Source: Eledone cirrhosa (Eukaryota). From it: a stretch of 64,000 nucleotides of DNA. The notes under the pieces were generated by a model. That model ran no database searches. It was not told where the DNA came from and was given only the letters and a program-made list of their open reading frames with translations. Positions 21,381 through 37,010 of the stretch are shown piece by piece; the first letter of the stretch is position 1; every line of letters starts with the position of its first letter. A program made the translations under genes and the position numbers. The stretch spans positions 21,824,001 to 21,888,000 of the forward strand of contig OZ024750.1 in the NCBI GenBank assembly GCA_964016885.1. Reading direction: 5' to 3'.

Positions 21381-21760
21381 TCTATCGCCATAAACGCCAG
21401 CCACAACTCTCAACAGTGTAGCCATTATGATACCATACGTAATGTTGCGTAAAATAAAAACAAAATACCTGTAATACCTGGTTTATTTAGCAGACTCGTT
21501 ATAGTTCCAACCCCTCCACGGTACACTTTGCTTTTCATAGATTTGTGGTTTATAAACAAAATACCGGTGGCTCAAAAAAGATCAAAGGTGGCATGTTTTA
21601 CTTGCGACTAAATTGGTACCTAAAACCCTTAACGAAAGAGTATTACACACTACAAAGTAATATTCTGTTAGGAGTAATGGATGTAGTAGTTTAATTTTGG
21701 TGTACTGTTTGTTACTGGTGATTATTTACTCCTTATTTTTTTCTTTCCTCTGCCTTTCAG

Positions 21761-21996
21761 GTGAAATGGAACGTCTCCAGAAATTCTGGTTAGCAGGAGC
21801 CTGTAAGAAGCGGGACCAAACTGGTGAATCAAGCAACTCTCTGGGAATTCTCAACTTTACGTCTGCTTTCATTTTATTGGCATGTGGAATGGCACTTGGC
21901 AGCATTTTATTGGTTGTTGAACATTTCTATTTCCGGTTTGGCCGGAAGACCTTACAGAAATGGGATAAGTGTGGTTGTTGCGGTTTAGTGAGCTTG
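21761..21996 (+). CDS. Nmdar2: NMDA receptor GluN2/NR2 exon: end of S2, M4 helix, proximal C-tail
   Basis: Acceptor ttcctctgcctttcag, donor gtaagt; GEMERLQKFWLAGAC..LGILNFTSAFILLACG..EHFYF..CGCCGLVSL resembles invertebrate NR2; phase 1 in, phase 0 out. Confidence 0.93.
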
Positions 21997-24635: not shown

Positions 24636-24695
24636 ATATATATATATATATATATATGAAATATATGAATCAAAGAACTGTTCAAAACATTATTG

Positions 24696-24742
24696 TGCTT
24701 ACAGCTGTTTCCTCCAAACCGAGGTTTGGATTCTTCGGAGCA
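24696..24742 (-). ncRNA. PLE minimal HHR, inverted pLTR copy
   Basis: Reverse complement TGCT-CCGAAGA-A-TCCAAACC.TC.GGTTTGGA-G-GAAAC-AGCT-GTA-AGCA. Confidence 0.7.
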
Positions 24743-26933
24743 ATTTATTAATGCATGGACAGTTATATGACCTCCTTTTCAGCCGAGAGACATACCAATA
24801 CATATTCAAACATTGATACATATTCAAACATTGTGGGTCAACATTCATTACAGAATTTAGAGTGGCAGTACACACTTCGAGATTACATTTATATTAATAG
24901 GTACAATCAAAAAAATCAAAGATATAGGTTAAAGTACAACATGAAGATAAGTGGTTATATAGTGCAAATGTTATATGTGTGGCACGCATGTGCGTCTTGT
25001 TTATATAGTGTGGCAGAGAGATATGTGTGGTAGAGGCACTTAGGTAGGTAAATAAGAGTGTTAGGTTGGTAGATCTGGTGGCAAAGTCTTTATATGATTG
25101 ATATAGTCTGTGTGTGGAGAAATATTATAAGCATTAAAGATAGTGCAAGCATTAAAAGTGTTATAAGTATTGGAGATGCACAGCGCAGGGATGTCAAGTA
25201 ATTCATGTACTTCGGTATTTTCATGGTCAAGGGAGTGTATATTTCGATTATATGCCTTTCACATAATCCACGACAATCCAGTTAGAGATCGTAGTCTGGT
25301 GCTCTTTAGTTCGATACAGGTGGTTGTTACGTTTCGAGAGACGCCATTGAATACCGGAAGTGTGTGTGTGGCTAAGGGGAGTTAATGCATGCGGGGAGGT
25401 AACTCTGGGGTTTCTATATCTAGCCATTAAAATGTGTCTCAATATAGACCCTAAATTCTATGGTGAGGTGCACCTTCCAAGAGAGACTTTTAAGGCATAA
25501 AGTGTACTAACTATAGAGTAGTTTAACTAAATTATGCTGAAGGTGATCATATTATTATTAGGGTGGATTAACCCATCTTAAGGTGCTACAAATGGAAATT
25601 ATAGATGATGAGCGAGGATTCTAAATTAATGATCTCTATGGTTGTAGTCTGCTCATATGACCAGGCGCGGTGATTGCAGGATTGCTTCAGGACCCAATGA
25701 TCTCTGGTAAGATCCGGGTCATCGCTTGCTACATTGGATGTCGAAAGATAGTCATCCCCAAGCAGGCCAAAGGTCAAGTCGCAGTCCTCGCGACCCCTCT
25801 CTGACCGTCAGATCATCCATATACGTACAACCCACACTGTGTGGGTTGTACGTATATGGATGATCTGACGGTCAGAGAGGGGTCGCGAGGACTGCGACTT
25901 GACCTTTGGCCTGCTTGGGGATGACTATCTTTCGACATCCAATGTAGCAAGCGATGACCCGGATCTTACCAGAGATCATTGGGTCCTGAAGCAATCCTGC
26001 AATCACCGCGCCTGGTCATATGAGCAGACTACAACCATAGAGATCATTAATTTAGAATCCTCGCTCATCATCTATAATTTCCATTTGTAGCACCTTAAGA
26101 TGGGTTAATCCACCCTAATAATAATATGATCACCTTCAGCATAATTTAGTTAAACTACTCTATAGTTAGTACACTTTATGCCTTAAAAGTCTCTCTTGGA
26201 AGGTGCACCTCACCATAGAATTTAGGGTCTATATTGAGACACATTTTAATGGCTAGATATAGAAACCCCAGAGTTACCTCCCCGCATGCATTAACTCCCC
26301 TTAGCCACACACACACTTCCGGTATTCAATGGCGTCTCTCGAAACGTAACAACCACCTGTATCGAACTAAAGAGCACCAGACTACGATCTCTAACTGGAT
26401 TGTCGTGGATTATGTGAAAGGCATATAATCGAAATATACACTCCCTTGACCATGAAAATACCGAAGTACATGAATTACTTGACATCCCTGCGCTGTGCAT
26501 CTCCAATACTTATAACACTTTTAATGCTTGCACTATCTTTAATGCTTATAATATTTCTCCACACACAGACTATATCAATCATATAAAGACTTTGCCACCA
26601 GATCTACCAACCTAACACTCTTATTTACCTACCTAAGTGCCTCTACCACACATATCTCTCTGCCACACTATATAAACAAGACGCACATGCGTGCCACACA
26701 TATAACATTTGCACTATATAACCACTTATCTTCATGTTGTACTTTAACCTATATCTTTGATTTTTTTGATTGTACCTATTAATATAAATGTAATCTCGAA
26801 GTGTGTACTGCCACTCTAAATTCTGTAATGAATGTTGACCCACAATGTTTGAATATGTATCAATGTTTGAATATGTATTGGTATGTCTCTCGGCTGAAAA
26901 GGAGGTCATATAACTGTCCATGCATTAATAAAT

Positions 26934-26980
26934 TGCTCCGTAGAATCCAAACCTCGGTTTGGAGGAAACAGCTGTAAGCA
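26934..26980 (+). ncRNA. PLE minimal HHR, middle copy, core mutated (CCGTAGA)
   Basis: As 31135-31181 but T at 26941 replaces the conserved A6. Confidence 0.6.
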
Positions 26981-27229
26981 CAATAATGTTTTGAACAGTT
27001 CTTTGATTCATATATTTCATATAACTGCTCTGTAAATCATCTGATGTTTTTACATTGAGCTACTTAACTTACTGGTAATAAGGTAGTAATACATTACTGC
27101 CTACCACTATTTAGGGTGTGTGTAAAATACTTACAACTGCTTAAGGTTTTGTGTTTACATAACCATAAATAGTATAACTAATACTATTAACTGCTCCATA
27201 TCGTTGAGCTGACATATAATATTGCCAAT

Positions 27230-29689
27230 ATGCTAATCAAAGACCAACTCCCCATGTCAACCAAGAACATACCAATACCATCCAGGAATACATATGAGAA
27301 ATTGCTGATCAACAGTGTAAATTCATTTATCAATAGAGTGAGATGGAGGACATTCCATTATGATAGAAACAAATCTAACAACTTGAATAATACTAACAAT
27401 TTTGACTCCTTCGGCTTTAAAACCTTTAAAAGCCCCCCTCATAACACTCTACTTAACTCCTTTGAAAATGACCTAGTTAAACTAGTTAAGAACATTAAAT
27501 ACAATAAGCACCATATTAGAAGCAACACCTTCTTAAACAAACTTAACACTTCTATTAGTGGATTCAAAACTAGTAATAAAATTATTGTACACGCAGATAA
27601 AACTAATAACATATACAGCCTAGATTATATTACTTATAGAAAGTTTATATATAATGAACTACATAAAAGCTACAAAAAAACCACCTTGAAAAACTTAGAA
27701 GATATTAATGTAGAGGGTTATAATATAGTGTCTAAACTAGGACTACAGAGGCATACACAACCTTTCACTCCGAACCCCCCTAGATTCTCTCTGAAGGACC
27801 ATAAGGAGAACTTCATCAGCAACCCCACGATAAGACTTATCTGCCCTTCCAAGTCCGACATTGGTATTATCAGCAAGAAGATTTTGGATAAAATCATCCC
27901 ACAAATTAAACACAAGATACACCTTAAACAATGGGGAAATACGGGTGAAGTAATTGAATGGTTTAAGGATATCAAGAATAATAAGAACAAAAAATTTATT
28001 CAATTTGATATCAATTCATACTACACCTCTATTTCCCCTATCCTATTAAATAAGGCACTTATCATGGCCATGACCAATAGCGACCTGACTAGAGCCCAGG
28101 TTGATGTCATCCTTGCGGCCCGTAAAACCATAATCACCTTCGAGGACCAACTATGGACACGCAAGGATACGCACAACAACTTCGACATAACCATGGGATC
28201 TAGTGACTCGGCGCAGGTCACTGATTTGGTCGGCCTATACCTCCTCAATGAAATCCATAAAGACCTCCCTTACCTCAACGGTGGTTTGTACCGCGATGAT
28301 GCACTTCTACTCATAGAATATAAGAAATTTAATATAGAAAGAACTAGAAAACAACTGCATAAGACATTCAAAAACTTTAACCTTAGTATCACCATGGACA
28401 AAAACACTAAAAATGTTAACTTCCTAGACGCCACACTATACCTAGACTCAAAAATATATACACCCTTCCATAAGCCTAATGAGAAACTTATTTACGTAGA
28501 TACCAAGTCTAATCACCCTAGATCAATATTAAACTCTATCTCTAAGGGGGTGTCCAATAGAATCTCTAGTCTGTCCTATGACGCAAACATATTTAGCAAA
28601 AACTCACAATATTACAATCAAGCATTAGCTAGCTCCGGCCATAATATAGAAATTGAGTTCCTACCTAAGAAAACACATAGCTACAACATCATCTCGCACA
28701 ACATGTCCATGAGGAAATCTAATAATAGGAATAGCAACCACAAGTACACCAAAGCGGAGGGTGCCACCGGAAGTAACCATTACCATGGAAACTACTGTGA
28801 GGCCTTAGGAGGAAGCAACACACCAAACACTAAAAGCAAAAATAGAAGAAGAAATAATACATTTTTCAACCCTCCTTTCAACCTAAATGTCTCCACCAAC
28901 ATACCTAGGGCTTTCTTCTCACTACTAGATAAAAACTTCCCTCTAGGACACAAGTACCACAACCTCTTAAACAAAAACACCATTAAAATCTCATACTCCA
29001 CGACGCCTAACTTAGCATACCACATAGCTAGCAGCAATAATAGTAAAATTAGTTCTTACTTCCAACAAACAAAATCGCAACGGGATGCAAACCCTCTAAA
29101 TACCACTGTAGCAAGCAACAATAGCAACGGCAGTAACAATGGAAATAACACTAGTATAAGTAATAACACCAGGGTTGTCAACCTGAACACCCAAAATCCT
29201 ATACCCACCACACAGACTTCCGCATTGCATTATAACCAGCGGACTAACGCACAGAATAATTGTAACTGTAGAGCTAATAGAACCTGCCCTTTAGATAAAA
29301 AATGCCTAACCAAGGATGTCATATACTCATGCACAGTCACGACTAATAACTCTTCAGAAACCTATGTAGGCTCCACTTCTAACTGCTTCAAAATTAGATA
29401 TAACTCGCACATCCACTCGTTCAAAAAGCACAGCCTAGCCAACTCCACCTCACTTTCTAGCTACATTCACTTTCTAAAATCTAAAAATAAACCATACACA
29501 CTCAAATGGGAAGTGATAGGCAGCGCGACCTCGTACAAACCACCTAATAAATTCTGTAACCTCTGTATACTAGAGACACACAATATTATCTTCTCCAACC
29601 GTAACCTACTTAACAAAAAATCTGAGGTGTTTGCAACTTGCCAGCACCGCCTCAGACATTCCTTCCAAAACTTTAAGCCCCATATATAG
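27230..29689 (+). CDS. PLE polyprotein, 819 aa: reverse transcriptase plus C-terminal GIY-YIG endonuclease (Naiad-like)
   Basis: STKNIPIP..RVRWR, LKDHKENF..PTIRLICPSKS, FIQFDINSYYTSI, FDITMGS.DSAQ, GLYRDDAL, VNFLD, CNCR..CPL..CL..VIYSC..YVGSTSNCFKIRYNSH, CNLC..E, C.H. Confidence 0.95.
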   Translation: MLIKDQLPMSTKNIPIPSRNTYEKLLINSVNSFINRVRWRTFHYDRNKSNNLNNTNNFDSFGFKTFKSPPHNTLLNSFENDLVKLVKNIKYNKHHIRSNTFLNKLNTSISGFKTSNKIIVHADKTNNIYSLDYITYRKFIYNELHKSYKKTTLKNLEDINVEGYNIVSKLGLQRHTQPFTPNPPRFSLKDHKENFISNPTIRLICPSKSDIGIISKKILDKIIPQIKHKIHLKQWGNTGEVIEWFKDIKNNKNKKFIQFDINSYYTSISPILLNKALIMAMTNSDLTRAQVDVILAARKTIITFEDQLWTRKDTHNNFDITMGSSDSAQVTDLVGLYLLNEIHKDLPYLNGGLYRDDALLLIEYKKFNIERTRKQLHKTFKNFNLSITMDKNTKNVNFLDATLYLDSKIYTPFHKPNEKLIYVDTKSNHPRSILNSISKGVSNRISSLSYDANIFSKNSQYYNQALASSGHNIEIEFLPKKTHSYNIISHNMSMRKSNNRNSNHKYTKAEGATGSNHYHGNYCEALGGSNTPNTKSKNRRRNNTFFNPPFNLNVSTNIPRAFFSLLDKNFPLGHKYHNLLNKNTIKISYSTTPNLAYHIASSNNSKISSYFQQTKSQRDANPLNTTVASNNSNGSNNGNNTSISNNTRVVNLNTQNPIPTTQTSALHYNQRTNAQNNCNCRANRTCPLDKKCLTKDVIYSCTVTTNNSSETYVGSTSNCFKIRYNSHIHSFKKHSLANSTSLSSYIHFLKSKNKPYTLKWEVIGSATSYKPPNKFCNLCILETHNIIFSNRNLLNKKSEVFATCQHRLRHSFQNFKPHI

Positions 29690-31134
29690 CAATGTCGGAC
29701 TGGAACCTAACACCACATCTAGCATCAAACACCAGAGACACACCCTATACTACATACCCAACACTAGCTGATCCATTATAACACAAACAACGACATCCCT
29801 CTGGAACCCTTCGCAGGGAAAATACCCATTTATACCTCTACGGCAGGTGTGACAACATCCACCCACCTGGACGGCACTACGCCACTCTAAGGGTAATTTG
29901 AGCATCAATTGATCGGTTGGATGGTGTTGGGCAGAGGAAACACCTCCCTTAGACGGATGTAAATTGATTTAATCGAGTAGCGCTGTTGACCAGTAGGACC
30001 AGGCCGCTGAGCGCAGCGAGTGAATGCAATGCAACTGCCGTGTGGGTTGTACGTATATGGATGATCTGACGGTCAGAGAGGGGTCGCGAGGACTGCGACT
30101 TGACCTTTGGCCTGCTTGGGGATGATTATCTTTCGACATCCAATGTAGCAAGCGATGACCCGGATCTTACCAGAGATCATTGGGTCCTGAAGCAATCCTG
30201 CAATCACCGCGCCTGGTCATATGAGCAGACTACAACCATAGAGATCATTAATTTAGAATCCTCGCTCATCATCTATAATTTCCATTTGTAGCACCTTAAG
30301 ATGGGTTAATCCACCCTAATAATAATATGATCACCTTCAGCATAATTTAGTTAAACTACTCTATAGTTAGTACACTTTATGCCTTAAAAGTCTCTCTTGG
30401 AAGGTGCACCTCACCATAGAATTTAGGGTCTATATTGAGACACATTTTAATGGCTAGATATAGAAACCCCAGAGTTACCTCCCCGCATGCATTAACTCCC
30501 CTTAGCCACACACACACTTCCGGTATTCAATGGCGTCTCTCGAAACGTAACAACCACCTGTATCGAACTAAAGCGCACCAGACTACGATCTCTAACTGGA
30601 TTGTCGTGGATTATGTGAAAGGCATATAATCGAAATATACACTCCCTTGACCATGAAAATACCGAAGTACATGAATTACTTGACATCCCTGCGCTGTGCA
30701 TCTCCAATACTTATAACACTTTTAATGCTTGCACTATCTTTAATGCTTATAATATTTCTCCACACACAGACTATATCAATCATATAAAGACTTTGCCACC
30801 AGATCTACCAACCTAACACTCTTATTTACCTACCTAAGTGCCTCTACCACACATATCTCTCTGCCACACTATATAAACAAGACGCACATGCGTGCCACAC
30901 ATATAACATTTGCACTATATAACCACTTATCTTCATGTTGTACTTTAACCTATATCTTTGATTTTTTTGATTGTACCTATTAATATAAATGTAATCTCGA
31001 AGTGTGTACTGCCACTCTAAATTCTGTAATGAATGTTGACCCACAATGTTTGAATATGTATCAATGTTTGAATATGTATTGGTATGTCTCTCGGCTGAAA
31101 AGGAGGTCATATAACTGTCCATGCATTAATAAAT

Positions 31135-31181
31135 TGCTCCGAAGAATCCAAACCTCGGTTTGGAGGAAACAGCTGTAAGCA
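31135..31181 (+). ncRNA. PLE minimal type I HHR in the 3' pLTR, U4C core variant, palindromic stem III
   Basis: Stem I TGCT/AGCA, CCGAAGA, 8-bp stem II, GAAAC-AGCT-GTA; predicted cleavage after 31177. Confidence 0.72.
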
Positions 31182-31382
31182 CAATAATGTTTTGAACAGT
31201 TCTTTGATTCATATATTTCATATAACTGCTCTGTAAATCATCTGATGTTTTTACATTGAGCTACTTAACTTACTGGTAATAAGGTAGTAATACATTACTG
31301 CCTACCACTATTTAGGGTGTGTGTAAAATACTTACAACTGCTTAAGGTTTTGTGTTTACATAACCATAAATAGTATAACTAA

Positions 31383-31543
<161 letters not shown>

Positions 31544-32159: not shown

Positions 32160-32323
32160 AGTATGGGAAAATCTTTGACATTTGAACAATCTGTGAGAGA
32201 GGCGATTGAAAGAAGCAGACGACATAGATGCAAAGATCCATTGTGTGAAACATCGTTGTGGAAAGCACGACATGAGTTAGACCTTGCTCTTCTAAAAATC
32301 GAAAAACTTCACTTGCAGCTGAC
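32160..32323 (+). CDS. Nmdar2: GluN2/NR2 C-terminal exon (absent from the ORF track)
   Basis: Acceptor ttttgttag, donor gtgagt; [54 protein letters not shown] matches the invertebrate NR2 motif SMGK.LTF..HRC.DP.C.T.LWK..HELD; phase 0 in, phase 2 out. Confidence 0.92.
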
Positions 32324-32544
32324 GTGAGTATTTTACATAATCGTAATGCCTTAAAGGATTAATCCAGTGATTTCTAAAATTTAATTTTGTTGTAGAAAGA
32401 ATCTCTATACAATTGTTCAAAAATCTGATAATGATCATGTTTTCTATGTAACAAGTATTTATCTATTCCATGGGGGGGCGATATCTATATGAATTGACAT
32501 AAAGAATCTTTCAAAACAAATACAAAACTGGAGTGTGTATAAAA

Positions 32545-32574
<30 letters not shown>

Positions 32575-32580
<6 letters not shown>

Positions 32581-32797
32581 ATGTATAATAAACAATACAG
32601 TATAATTACCTTATTACCAGAGGTTTCCCGAATAAGACGAATGCGGACGTTTCTTGTATTCGTCTTATTCGGGAAACCTCTGGTAATGAGGTAATTATAC
32701 TGTATTGTTTATTATACATTAAATATTTAGCTCTGTAACTTACATAGAGCACTCTTCATTCCTCTGACTTTTTCAATTTTCAACGGAAACTTCAATA
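32575..32797 (+). mobile_element. Fold-back mini-element with ~70-bp arms and a 3' tail
   Basis: Arms 32575-32643 and ~32657-32725, tail 32726-32797, GAAACCTCTGGTA HHR half, (TA)n flanks. Confidence 0.75.
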
Positions 32798-32819
32798 TAT
32801 ATATATATATATATATTAT

Positions 32820-33215
32820 ATTTAGTAGAACAATTTTGGTGATGCACAGATGTTCGCTTTAATACAAATCTTTACTTTCTAGGTTACGTGTGTCTATAAT
32901 TTAGTTAGGCGTTGTTTTCCTGTGTTTCTGTATTCGCATTCAGATAATCTGTTTCTTCTAATAGATACGACATTGGTGATTCTAGAAATAGATCTAGTTA
33001 GAAAGTCACATACGGTGCATATATTTACTGATCCCACACCCGGTATGGCATACCTGAACACTTCATTGTTGATATATATATATATAATATATATATATCA
33101 AGTAAGAATATTTTCGAAACAGCGAGTGGGTTTGAAATTATTAGAAATGTAAGCTATCGCCGTATTTTGACTAAAGAAATTAAAGAAATTATTTAGCCTG
33201 ATAGCTTACATTTAT

Positions 33216-33255
<40 letters not shown>

Positions 33256-33350
33256 ATACATGAACATATGTGTGTGTGTGCGCGTGTGTGCGTGTGTGTA
33301 TGTATGTATGTTTATATATACCAACACAAATTTCTCTCTCTCTCTCTCTC

Positions 33351-33381
<31 letters not shown>

Positions 33382-33633
33382 CAACAATGAAGTGTTCAGG
33401 TATGCCATACCGGGTGTGGGATCAGTAAATATATGCACCGTATGTGACTTTCTAACTAGATCTATTTCTAGAATCAACAATGTCGTATCTATTAGAAGAA
33501 ACAGATTATCTGAATGCGAATACAGAAACACAGGAAAACAACGCCTAACTAAATTATAGACACACCTAACCTAGAAAGTAAAGATTTGTATTAAAGCGAA
33601 CATCTGTGCATCAGCAAAAATGTTCTACTAAAT
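32820..33633. repeat. ~255-bp inverted repeat pair (MITE/foldback-like) around microsatellites
   Basis: 32820-33073 versus 33380-33633, few mismatches; mirrored ORFs 32922+ and 33531-. Confidence 0.85.
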
Positions 33634-33864
33634 TGAATTAGACTCTTAACAGCTAACATCTAAAGTTATGGTAGCAACAATAATGAAACATCTAAATGAA
33701 ATATTTGTATAATTAGGAAACAATTTTGAAGTAATGCTTGTTTAGTAAGACGGTGATTTGGCGGAGGTATCGGAGTGAATTCTTGCTGGTATTCGTTCCA
33801 GCTCTTTACTCTCCGAGTTCCAATCGCATCGAGGTCAAATTTACCTTTCATCCTTTCTCCTTTA

Positions 33865-33909
<45 letters not shown>

Positions 33910-34586
33910 TTCCCTCCCTCTCTTTATTTCCCCCGCTCTCGCTCTCTCTATTCTCCCCTCTCTCTTGTCTTAGCATCTCTTTCTCTCGCTCTGTATGTAC
34001 AAAGTGTAGTGCAAAAGTAACGTTAGTCAAAATCGGTGTAGTCAAACGTTTAGACTGATGCGCGCCACCAACGTTTACAATTCCCAAGAACCGACAGCAC
34101 CCTAACGACTCCATATGTAGTTATGAGAACACTTACTGCAGCTTGTATTGCAGGTGACTTGATTCGCTACTGTGTGTTGAAATTGAGGCAAACACATCGT
34201 TGAAGAGACGCTTTAGCCATTTAAAAATAACTGAAAAAAACTCTTAAATTCCCTTTACATTTATCACTTATTTTTCTGATATCAAAATTTTCGTTAGTGG
34301 CCAGATAAAGATACACGTAAAAACTGCTATATTGTATTTTCATATATTTCGTGATATCAATATTTTCGTCACCCTGTTTCTGACCTTGTTATTGACAAAA
34401 TACCATCTTAACAGAGTTGACGAAACTTTTGACACTATGATATATATGAAAACAAATTATGACAATTTTTGTGCATGTTTTAGTAACTAAAAGAGTTGTT
34501 CAATCATGTAATTGCTAAGAATCAAATGTTTTTGCTGATGCCTTTTCTTGTTAACATTTTTACAGATATTGTTTAGAACTTAGATG

Positions 34587-34665
34587 CAGGGTGTCCCCCA
34601 AAAAAAGATATACACACTTCAATAGCATTCTAATAATTGTGTGTATACATTTTTGGAACACCCTG
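34587..34665. mobile_element. Tc1/mariner-type MITE
   Basis: Termini CAGGGTGTCC..GGAACACCCTG followed by TA. Confidence 0.6.
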
Positions 34666-34814
34666 TATATTATCAATACACCCTATGTAATCATTTCGTC
34701 TGTTGAAAATATTTTGTGTAATTATTTAACATATACAGTGATATATTTCACTTTAAAATAGTCATCGTTATTATTTATATTCTCTGCTACAGATAATCCG
34801 CTTATAATAATTGT

Positions 34815-35101
34815 TTCTACCTTTGGCACAATTACCCCAGTGCATTCGACAGTCGATCGACCTTCGTCAAATCGGACCGAGGAAACAATATTTCCGTTGG
34901 TCTTTCCAATTGCTAATACTATCTATCGGTCACAACTCCAGATAGAAGGAGCAGCATGAAATAAAGTGTCTTGCTCAAGGATATAACGCATCGCCCGGTC
35001 CAGGAAGCGAACTCATGGCCACGCGCCTTCCAGTGCATTACTGGTACTTTATTTTATCGACCCTGTCCGTAAGAATGAAAGCCAAAGTTAACCTCGGCGG
35101 G
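34815..35101 (-). mobile_element. Main SINE interrupted by a second tRNA-SINE family (~34848-35030)
   Basis: CCAGTGCATT present on both sides of an insert containing AAAGTGTCTTGCTCAAGGA and CCAGGAAGCGAACTC. Confidence 0.6.
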
Positions 35102-35767
35102 AGGTTAACTTTATCTTTAGCAGAGAATATAAAAATCTATAATAATATGCAATGTTGTTGCTGCTTGAACATTGGAAGAGCTTACTCGTAAAATTAACGT
35201 TCAAGTGACTGATAATTCCACAACACATGTACCCTTAACGCAGTTCTCAAGATTTAGTGTAAGACAAAGTGTGACTTGGCTAGTCCTTTAAATTGCAGGT
35301 ACAGTCGATCCGAAGGGCTTCCAAACATTTGTTTGTCTACCCAATTTTCCTCACAATAAGTCCATCAATGGTTATGCTAAATGACTCTTTCTCACGATGC
35401 TAAGCGAATTTCTTAACCATTTTGCCATGGTTTGTGCACAATGTAAAGTTGGGAGGATGTCGGGTGATGAACGTGTGTGTGAGACTAAACCTGTGAGTGA
35501 GCTGCATTAATAATTTTGAGAGTGGCCAGCGTCAGAGGTTTCACGTGACTGAATGGGAAAAGCAGACAACGGAATTAGTATGAACATATACAAAATATAT
35601 TTTTTTTAATCTTCAAAAGTAAAAAAAGAATTTAATTTCATCCACAAAACGCCAGCATCAACAGTTTCCAAGAGATGGCAACATGAATGGATCTGTTGTT
35701 TTTATCTAAAGACATTTTTCCAATTCCACCCCGCCCGTCCCTTCAATCTGTCTAATTTCTCATTCTT

Positions 35768-35803
35768 TCTTCTGACGAAGGACTAGCGTCCGAAACGTTA
35801 AGA
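35768..35803 (+). ncRNA. Minimal hammerhead ribozyme with canonical core
   Basis: TCTT-CTGACGA-A-GGAC.TAGC.GTCC-GAAAC-GTT-AAGA; palindromic AACGTT stem III (dimer type). Confidence 0.75.
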
Positions 35804-35852
35804 CCCTCTTCCTGCTATTTCAAGCGTTAACCTAATATATTCCTTCAATATA

Positions 35853-35975
35853 CTGAAAACCTGTTTGTTTGAATGGGGCGTGCCCGTTGATAGTTGTGTT
35901 GTGTTATTTTGGTCATCAGCAGGACCTGACAACAGCACCGGAACCGAAACTGGTTCCAATAGTTCACATTTATAG
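35853..35975 (-). other. Intronic inverted copy of terminal GluN2 exon segment 36472-36594 (candidate editing-complementary sequence)
   Basis: 123 bp, ungapped, 120/123 complementary; A36517:C35930, A36522:C35925, G36553:U35894. Confidence 0.9.
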
Positions 35976-36004
35976 TGAACTATTCTGTTGTTATTTCTGT
36001 TTAG

Positions 36005-36069
<65 letters not shown>

Positions 36070-36333
36070 CAAAATATAGAAAATATTTTTTATGATTTTC
36101 AAAATTACCAAAACATTTTTCTCTATAATTAACAGAGATATGGTCACAATTCTTAAGATACAGGTACACTTGTAACTTTAGAAAGGCCAAATATCCTATT
36201 ATTCCAGTTTCTCCTATTCCTAAAATATAACTTGAACCAACTTTAAAAATTAACATTATTAAAATTTAGTATTTGATGATAACTTGAATAACTTGTCTTT
36301 ATTAAAAAGAAAATGTTCTACCTTTTTTTTTAG

Positions 36334-36724
36334 ATCGTGCGGAATTACTCCGGAGCCCGGTGCCGTATGGAAACTACAATCAGACTGTTACAAGCCTTGT
36401 GCACGCGAAACTAAGAAAGCCATTAAATTCAAAGAAGACAACGATAATGAGGATTCTCCGATGAAGAAAGGCTATAAATGTGAACTATTGGAACCAGTTT
36501 CGGTTCCGGTGCTGTTATCAGATCCTGCTGATGACCAAAATAACACAACACAGCTATCAACGGGCACGCCCCATTCAAACAAACAGGTTTTCAGGCGCTC
36601 GCCCAGTTATACGACAGCCATGTCTGTAGACGAAGAATCAAAACCTCAGGCGGGTAAAACAAGATATCATAACGGAAATTATTACATTGAAGTTGACAAC
36701 CGAGAAATTGAAAGTGTCCTTTAA
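36334..36724 (+). CDS. Nmdar2: GluN2/NR2 terminal coding exon ending in PDZ-binding-type ...EIESVL*
   Basis: Acceptor cctttttttttag; phase 2 matches the previous exon; open frame SCGITPEPG..REIESVL TAA. Confidence 0.85.
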
Positions 36725-37010
36725 AATAACGATATTTCGTTAAGGGGAATATACAAACTAAAACAAAAAACAAAAAGGAACATTTTTTTTATCGATAATA
36801 AATATATAAAATAAGGAGGTATGCCCAAAATATTAAAATGGCGAAAGTGATAATAATAAAAGATATGAATATAATCTAAATTTGCAAATGAAAAGCAGCG
36901 AAATTATTTCGGGGAAATGAAAACCAAAATGATATTCACTTTGTTATTTTATTAAAAAAAATTATAAAATGAATACTGGAATTTTATTGGAGGAGAGAAG
37001 AAAAAATACT

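Follow-up and report, generated by a model that had tools for sequence, protein, structure and literature searches.

A young inverted copy of the terminal GluN2 exon in the last GluN2 intron of Eledone cirrhosa: probable repair origin and predicted ADAR editing

Editing by ADARs is favoured where an A lies opposite a C, and the editing-complementary sequence (ECS) of GRIA2 is conserved and pairs imperfectly with its target. The GRIA2 Q/R ECS sits in a downstream intron and forms an exon-intron duplex in a neural pre-mRNA, and the ECS of Blcap shows that an upstream intron can serve the same function; in both cases the editing is demonstrated, site-selective and conserved (PMC10404624). Long duplexes are edited heavily, with up to 50–60% of adenosines edited in vitro in dsRNA over ~50 bp, and ADARs prefer a 5′ U or A neighbour and disfavour a 5′ G (PMC3113232), though these preferences belong to human and frog enzymes and may not be those of the host studied here. 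Squid edit repeats and introns in every tissue, with coding sites edited chiefly in neurons (PMC9068888), and some squid recoding is independent of introns (PMC7192619). The origin and adaptiveness of coleoid recoding sites are debated (PMC6881472, PMC8382921).

Other described systems concern how DNA is copied at breaks. Repair-mediated duplications (Pace, Sen, Batzer and Feschotte 2009, PMC2671141) have a median length of 147 bp, a donor within 5 kb and a combination of microhomology, deletion and filler in 10 of 39 cases; most evolve at the neutral rate, and an exon copied backwards into an intron of its own gene is already listed among them. Snap-back synthesis-dependent MMEJ (Yu and McVey 2010, PMC2943611) leaves templated insertions and inverted repeats at the junction after several rounds of synthesis, with templates scored within 20 bp of the break.

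We examined a 64,000-nt stretch of E. cirrhosa DNA (contig OZ024750.1, positions 21,824,001 to 21,888,000; hereafter the window), which carries the 3′ part of a glutamate receptor gene on the + strand. Three exons match a related 1070-aa protein, P0001, in tblastn: 21760–21996 (end of S2, M4 and start of the tail; P0001 residues 805–887) at 92%, the penultimate exon at 32160–32323, with its donor GT at 32324, at 95%, and the terminal coding exon at 36334–36724 at 68–73%, the last two also being supported by contigs of relatives. Protein searches gave molluscan NMDA 2A/2B-like receptors as the named relatives of P0001, which upholds the GluN2 label of the preliminary description; no close named cephalopod GluN2 was found in these searches, and Pfam gave no match for three peptides from the window. 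A relative's spliced RNA-like contig, X15, joins the preceding exon to 36334, and the last GluN2 intron spans 32324–36333 (4010 nt). The terminal exon encodes the cytoplasmic tail, which ends in ESVL, presumably a PDZ ligand.

Within the last intron, positions 35853–35975 (the arm, or acceptor, − strand) are the ungapped reverse complement of coding positions 36472–36594 (the donor segment, + strand), which encode YKCELL...NKQVF and the first two bases of the next Arg codon. Both segments are 123 nt long, lie 496 nt apart and are Watson-Crick complementary at 120 of 123 positions (BLAST E 6e-54 within the window). The exceptions are A36517 opposite C35930, A36522 opposite C35925 and G36553 opposite T35894, a G:U wobble. 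The preliminary description had given the same coordinates, count and exceptions, with a spacing of about 500 nt on one pre-mRNA, and these proved exact. In a search of the 3.0-Gb genome that skips very common words, the terminal exon has two matches, itself and the arm. The last copied base is 260 nt into the exon. Of the conserved RRSPSY motif, the helix reaches only the first Arg codon, at its very end, and ESVL lies beyond it.

The arm interrupts a high-copy repeat near the boundary between its body and tail. The body (35640–35855, + strand) is 5′-truncated, non-coding and likely non-autonomous, and was delimited by genomic matches and comparison with 29 other copies. With 35660–35855 as the query there were 4440 candidates in the genome, of which the best 40 match at 93–95% over query positions 1–196, self-hit aside, and the 7 matches in a 600-kb sample of the genome point to some 35,000 copies; the sequence common to the copies ends about 290 nt upstream of the query. 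In 27 of the 29 other copies the body runs without an insert into a 35-nt tail and then a microsatellite. The other two stop 7 nt into the tail, and more such truncated ends were found among loci with altered junction letters. In the window the rest of the tail is at 35982–36007 (+ strand), and a (TA)n run at 36008–36066 closes the repeat. On the pre-mRNA (+) strand the body contains a minimal type I hammerhead motif at 35768–35803 (stem I 35768–71/35800–03, core 35772–78, stem II 35780–91, GAAA 35792–95, palindromic ACGU; predicted cut after 35799), read from the letters and by a regular expression that is positive in 25 of the 29 other copies. The motif agrees with the description of the min-HHR (PMC4209133); an Rfam search at E up to 5 returned no hammerhead match and only two chance microRNA hits.

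These features suggest a Penelope-type repeat. As in Penelope-like elements (PMC4209133, PMC8557442, PMC11167929), there is a minimal type I hammerhead with a palindromic stem III, a 35-nt tail (an optional tail of 30–40 nt being known), variable 5′ truncation and microsatellite ends. No linked RT/GIY-YIG frame was found upstream of the repeat in 29 loci, using one PLE protein as the query. Intact copies end 111 nt after stem II, the same point at which an anole Penelope-like element begins reverse transcription, and the endonuclease of that element prefers ATT and can nick its own repeat (PMC11167929). Cleavage of GluN2 pre-mRNA by the putative hammerhead would be unlikely, since single minimal motifs are inactive alone (PMC4209133) and the anole motif needs a protein (PMC11167929).

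The junctions of the arm were read against the 29 other repeat copies, using also the loose-end letters of other copies. On the left, CTG at 35853–35855 is common to repeat and donor, giving a 3-nt microhomology. On the right, a 6-nt filler (35976–35981) is copied back from the insert and completes a 10-bp hairpin with a 7-nt loop with the end of the insert (35958–35984, + strand, from repeat-copy comparison and folding), and ATT at 35982–35984 rejoins the repeat tail with the loss of 5 repeat nucleotides. Poly(A) and a target duplication are absent. Given the CTG microhomology, the 5-nt deletion, the snap-back filler and a single donor 496 nt away, we consider it very probable that the arm arose as a repair-mediated duplication. 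The empty state of the transposon can be read from its other copies, and the donor is single, longer than 50 bp and less than 5 kb away. Compared with the duplications of Pace et al. (PMC2671141), the host here is an invertebrate, the donor lies wholly in a coding exon and the filler is a snap-back of the insert itself; their discussion takes up transcription and binding sites, and here it is an RNA duplex and its editing that are considered. The templated insertion, the inverted repeat at the junction and the several rounds of synthesis are shared with snap-back MMEJ (PMC2943611), though the template is ~620 nt from the break and 123 nt long. This is a known kind of scar, then, set apart by its youth, its near-perfect pairing and its wholly coding donor.

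The course of events would have begun with a break in the hammerhead-bearing repeat, perhaps made by a Penelope endonuclease; repair would then have primed on the exon CTG ~620 nt downstream, copied 123 nt, snapped back for 9 nt and rejoined at ATT. An endonuclease cut is plausible as the trigger given the end point of intact copies together with the ATT preference and self-nicking of the anole enzyme (PMC11167929). The 3′ end of the repeat is not a hot spot in our comparison: an inverted copy starts within 250 nt in 1 of 59 repeat copies and in 3 of the 240 stretches used as controls (P 0.59), after removal of four loci that were duplicates or self-matches, and none of 32 other copies with altered junction letters has an inverted local insert at the junction (34 loci, minus the window's own and with one pair of mates counted once). 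For this reason the role of the endonuclease stays at "perhaps".

To place the arm in a genomic context, we used sixty 10-kb stretches at round coordinates on 21 contigs and collected inverted pairs of at least 60 nt and at least 90% identity. There are 59 local inverted pairs in 33 of the 60 stretches, and 5 of the 59 have a spacer and recur in no more than one other stretch, with rarity judged within the 600 kb sampled. These 5 correspond to about 8 local events per Mb, or about 25,000 (8,000–58,000) per genome, so that one hitting an exon is expected without selection; at the sampled rate, well under one exon-templated arm would be expected in ~150 exons.

Relatives of the host allowed the later changes to be placed in order. 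Contigs from three organisms (DNA for D and F, RNA-like for I), which have 13–16 other letters in ~400 nt, all read G36517, A36522 and G36553 (3/3). Because all three relatives have G at 36517, it was the exon that changed there: under parsimony, A36517:C came from a synonymous exon G>A change (TTG>TTA), with the arm keeping the ancestral G, and the differences at 36522 and 36553 are arm-side changes, so that after copying the exon would have changed once and the arm twice. Relatives also differ at four other donor sites; there the arm has the same letters as the exon, and the copy must be later than those differences. The divergence of arm and exon (3/123) is no larger than that of the host repeat, 7 of whose 197 body columns differ from the majority of the 29 closest other copies (median of the others 3.0%), and the insert is therefore as old as the repeat copy or younger. 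In the DNA contigs of D and F the upstream intron is covered for 530 and about 1430 nt, and nothing there matched the arm, which supports the earlier suggestion that the copy is newly born; the upstream introns of the relatives do not align at 80%, and no orthologous repeat copy was seen. The marks of a conserved ECS are likewise missing, as the arm was seen in neither of the two relatives' DNA contigs and none of the three differences is compensated, but a newly born ECS would look the same. One candidate edit, an A>G in the RNA-like contig X15 at 36517, was rejected because the G is also in the DNA of two relatives and is thus genomic; X15 being a contig, minority edits would be invisible in it.

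The preliminary description had proposed folding the region and had claimed a long duplex within one pre-mRNA, and both were followed through. The predicted fold of 35800–36724 has an energy of −351 kcal/mol (z −28), with 0 of 20 shuffles equally good. When 35600–36900 is folded, the duplex itself is predicted at −228 kcal/mol with a mean pair probability of 0.98 and 120 of 123 pairs above 0.9; in the spliced RNA, with the intron removed, only 22 of the 123 donor bases are predicted to have a partner above 0.9. Unspliced GluN2 RNA is thus predicted to fold into a near-perfect and very stable long helix. Terminal introns often splice late, and with the donor ending 260 nt into the exon the helix can close early, when the intron is probably still present.

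There are 39 exon adenosines in the duplex, 25 of which would recode if edited, and 30 intron adenosines. A favourable 5′ neighbour is present at 12 of the 25 recoding positions, examples being Y>C at 36474, K>E and K>R at 36476–7, N>D and N>S at 36539–43 and 36578–9, and T>A at 36548 and 36560, and A36522 is among those least favoured by neighbour context. Our preferred reading, to which we give a probability of roughly 0.52, is that a repair-made inverted copy created a near-perfect duplex that is likely edited promiscuously by ADARs as an unselected by-product. The unspliced RNA would pair over 120 of 123 positions, nuclear ADARs would act ahead of splicing on many of the adenosines in exon and intron, chiefly where the 5′ neighbour is U or A, and some of the mRNAs would end up with several substitutions in the tail upstream of RRSPSY and ESVL. 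Taking the repair origin as given, editing above background has somewhat better than even prospects. The duplex resembles promiscuous substrates of the inverted-Alu type, except that it covers coding sequence. It would act as an upstream ECS does in Blcap (PMC10404624), with the difference that no conservation of it was found, that it is young and near-perfect, and that its editing is a prediction. The host likely has very high editing, which sets the case apart.

A possible alternative, to which we give a clear minority share, is that the arm has the same repair origin and is functionally silent, so that mature GluN2 mRNA is unedited above background. Splicing may outrun pairing, so that the intron is gone by the time a helix could form. 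Alternatively, transcripts with heavy editing may be retained or destroyed, or paired ones may never enter the mature pool. The arm has evolved no more slowly than the exon (two changes versus one), inverted copies are common in the genome, most such duplications evolve at the neutral rate (Pace 2009, PMC2671141), and a local hairpin can trap the last 18 nt of the arm, all of which would suit silence. With that said, the predicted energy of the duplex (−228 kcal/mol) far exceeds that of the hairpin (−11 kcal/mol), the short distance from the exon start to the end of the donor and the late splicing of terminal introns leave room for pairing, and coleoid ADAR activity on repeats is broad (PMC9068888).

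It is unlikely that the arm is an ECS under selection that steers ADAR, through its A:C mismatches, to the particular sites A36522 (GAT>GGT, Asp>Gly) and A36517 (TTA>TTG, synonymous). The preliminary description had taken the mismatches as marks of editing sites, and its codon effects and its caveat about the 5′ G of A36522 were correct on recomputation; the inference drawn from them was not supported. The gene is neural, both true mismatches are of the exon-A:C kind that generally favours editing, and an arm-side T>C makes one of them opposite a recoding position. Against this, designed A:C sites are unsupported, because 36517 owes its mismatch to a synonymous exon change and at least two of three transitions would give exon-A:C by chance with P about 0.16; the other two differences arose on the arm. 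Editing at A36517 would only restore the synonymous ancestral base, and restorative editing of this kind is regarded as neutral (PMC6881472). The 5′ G of A36522 is disfavoured (PMC3113232), the residue it encodes is in a stretch that aligns poorly with P0001, and an unbroken 123-bp helix is non-selective. Three of the five differences to relatives in the donor segment are amino-acid changes, suggesting that this is a fast-evolving part of the tail that tolerates change. The comparison with GRIA2 made earlier is also weak, since the GRIA2 ECS is site-selective and kept, whereas the arm is a near-perfect, lineage-specific repair scar in a repeat for which no conservation was found. Nothing suggests that selection shaped the inverted copy; adaptive tuning of the duplex is doubtful, and the A:C positions would not be special by design.

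We regard it as very improbable that the arm was reverse-transcribed by a Penelope enzyme from edited GluN2 RNA, with its two G letters as fossil inosines. Two of the three differences do read exon A to arm G, and the insert adjoins the tail boundary, the point from which reverse transcription of such elements begins (PMC11167929), but G36517 is ancestral and requires no edit, which leaves 1 of 39 adenosines to explain, in a disfavoured context, and the remaining difference runs G>A. Among the changes in the host repeat, A>G is not in one-way excess (2/7), the lack of poly(A) and target duplication speaks against reverse transcription, germ-line GluN2 RNA would be required, and a donor 0.6 kb away points to DNA capture.

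Same-species contigs were available from three runs (X1, X2 and X3) of one sample, which may be the source of the assembly. X1 has breaks at precisely 36516 and 36554, and its letters are those of the exon itself. The exon-context contig of X2 and X3 reads G/G/A at the three sites and is otherwise free of substitutions over 820 and 674 nt. A RAD-seq run, X21, has no coverage of either copy. The contigs of X1, X2 and X3 are all accounted for by a two-copy bubble in the assembly graph, and exon conversion by the arm on one haplotype may be an alternative for the X2 and X3 letters. An artefact of assembly, or a second allele of the exon put in the wrong place, is a scarcely credible account of the arm, for even though no contig of the three runs spans either junction, so that they support the arm indirectly, and the exon context of X2 and X3 itself carries the arm's letters, all differences of an independent allele would fall inside the copied segment with a probability of 0.003–0.006, X1 breaks as a collapsed two-copy bubble would, and the junction carries coherent repair marks.

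A broader reading, which we hold only tentatively and think improbable on balance, is that this is an editing guide caught at birth and that repair-mediated inverted copying is a standing source of exon-intron duplexes in coleoids. If so, one step would switch on dense recoding of a protein segment, up to 25 codon changes in this case, and selection against G>A changes inside the helix would be relaxed. With an assumed coding share of the genome of 1–1.5%, the 8,000–58,000 local copies would mean that such a copy could have arisen for roughly one hundred exons, or more, and this would contribute to an explanation of the clusters of recoding sites that are particular to single species. Candidate ECSs are mostly old, with imperfect pairing, and their origin is unreadable; here one can read the donor, the acceptor, the mechanism at the junction and the order in which the three later changes came, and relatives in which no arm was seen offer a natural control for the birth of editing guides. 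The locus could show whether a single DNA-repair accident switches on dense recoding in a receptor tail, and were editing absent it would be an ordinary scar. In mainly open-access literature, at the level of titles and abstract openings, we found no description of a cephalopod ECS that derives from a young inverted copy of an exon.

Several smaller observations accompany the locus. In the P0001 cluster (P0003, P0005, P0009, P0012) there are variants K81R, S1031G (RRSPSY>RRSPGY), I786V and K1049E, all reachable by A>G; they may be edits of GluN2 in a more distant relative, outside the copied segment, or alternatively alleles. An older copy of the host repeat family (82%) lies on the same strand at 4409–4512, and its hammerhead stem II looks decayed. 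At 35983–36004 the repeat tail in the window ends in a pyrimidine run and AG, an ending seen in none of 37 pattern-matched tails (34 AC, 2 AT, 1 TC) and in one tail outside the pattern (L098); if the AG at 36003–36004 served as an acceptor, the 129-aa tail is predicted to be exchanged for a few Tyr and Ile residues followed by a stop codon. In an upstream GluN2 intron, 24653–31388 reads as a young Penelope-type insertion. It has an 832-aa open frame (27191–29689, + strand) with RT-like and GIY-YIG-like motifs, which has no Pfam match, whose nearest Atlas clusters carry GIY-YIG, RVT_1 or HTH_animal, and which sits between near-identical repeats beside a 2.37-kb palindrome of 99.9%.

Other inverted sequences were also noted. 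The last GluN2 intron holds a second inverted copy, 32820–33097 and 33355–33633 (279 nt, 98%, 257-nt spacer), which is flanked by (TA)n, has 2 matches genome-wide (a single donor) and would give the pre-mRNA a further long duplex, confined to the intron. At another copy of the host repeat (L123), an inverted pair of 419 nt and 100% identity lies 70–488 and 976–1394 nt after the repeat body, just past the (TA)n run, and would represent a very recent event of similar geometry. Finally, the window contains fold-back palindromes of 130–210 nt (89–94%) at 32571–32729, 52638–52847, 53629–53825 and 7288–7416.
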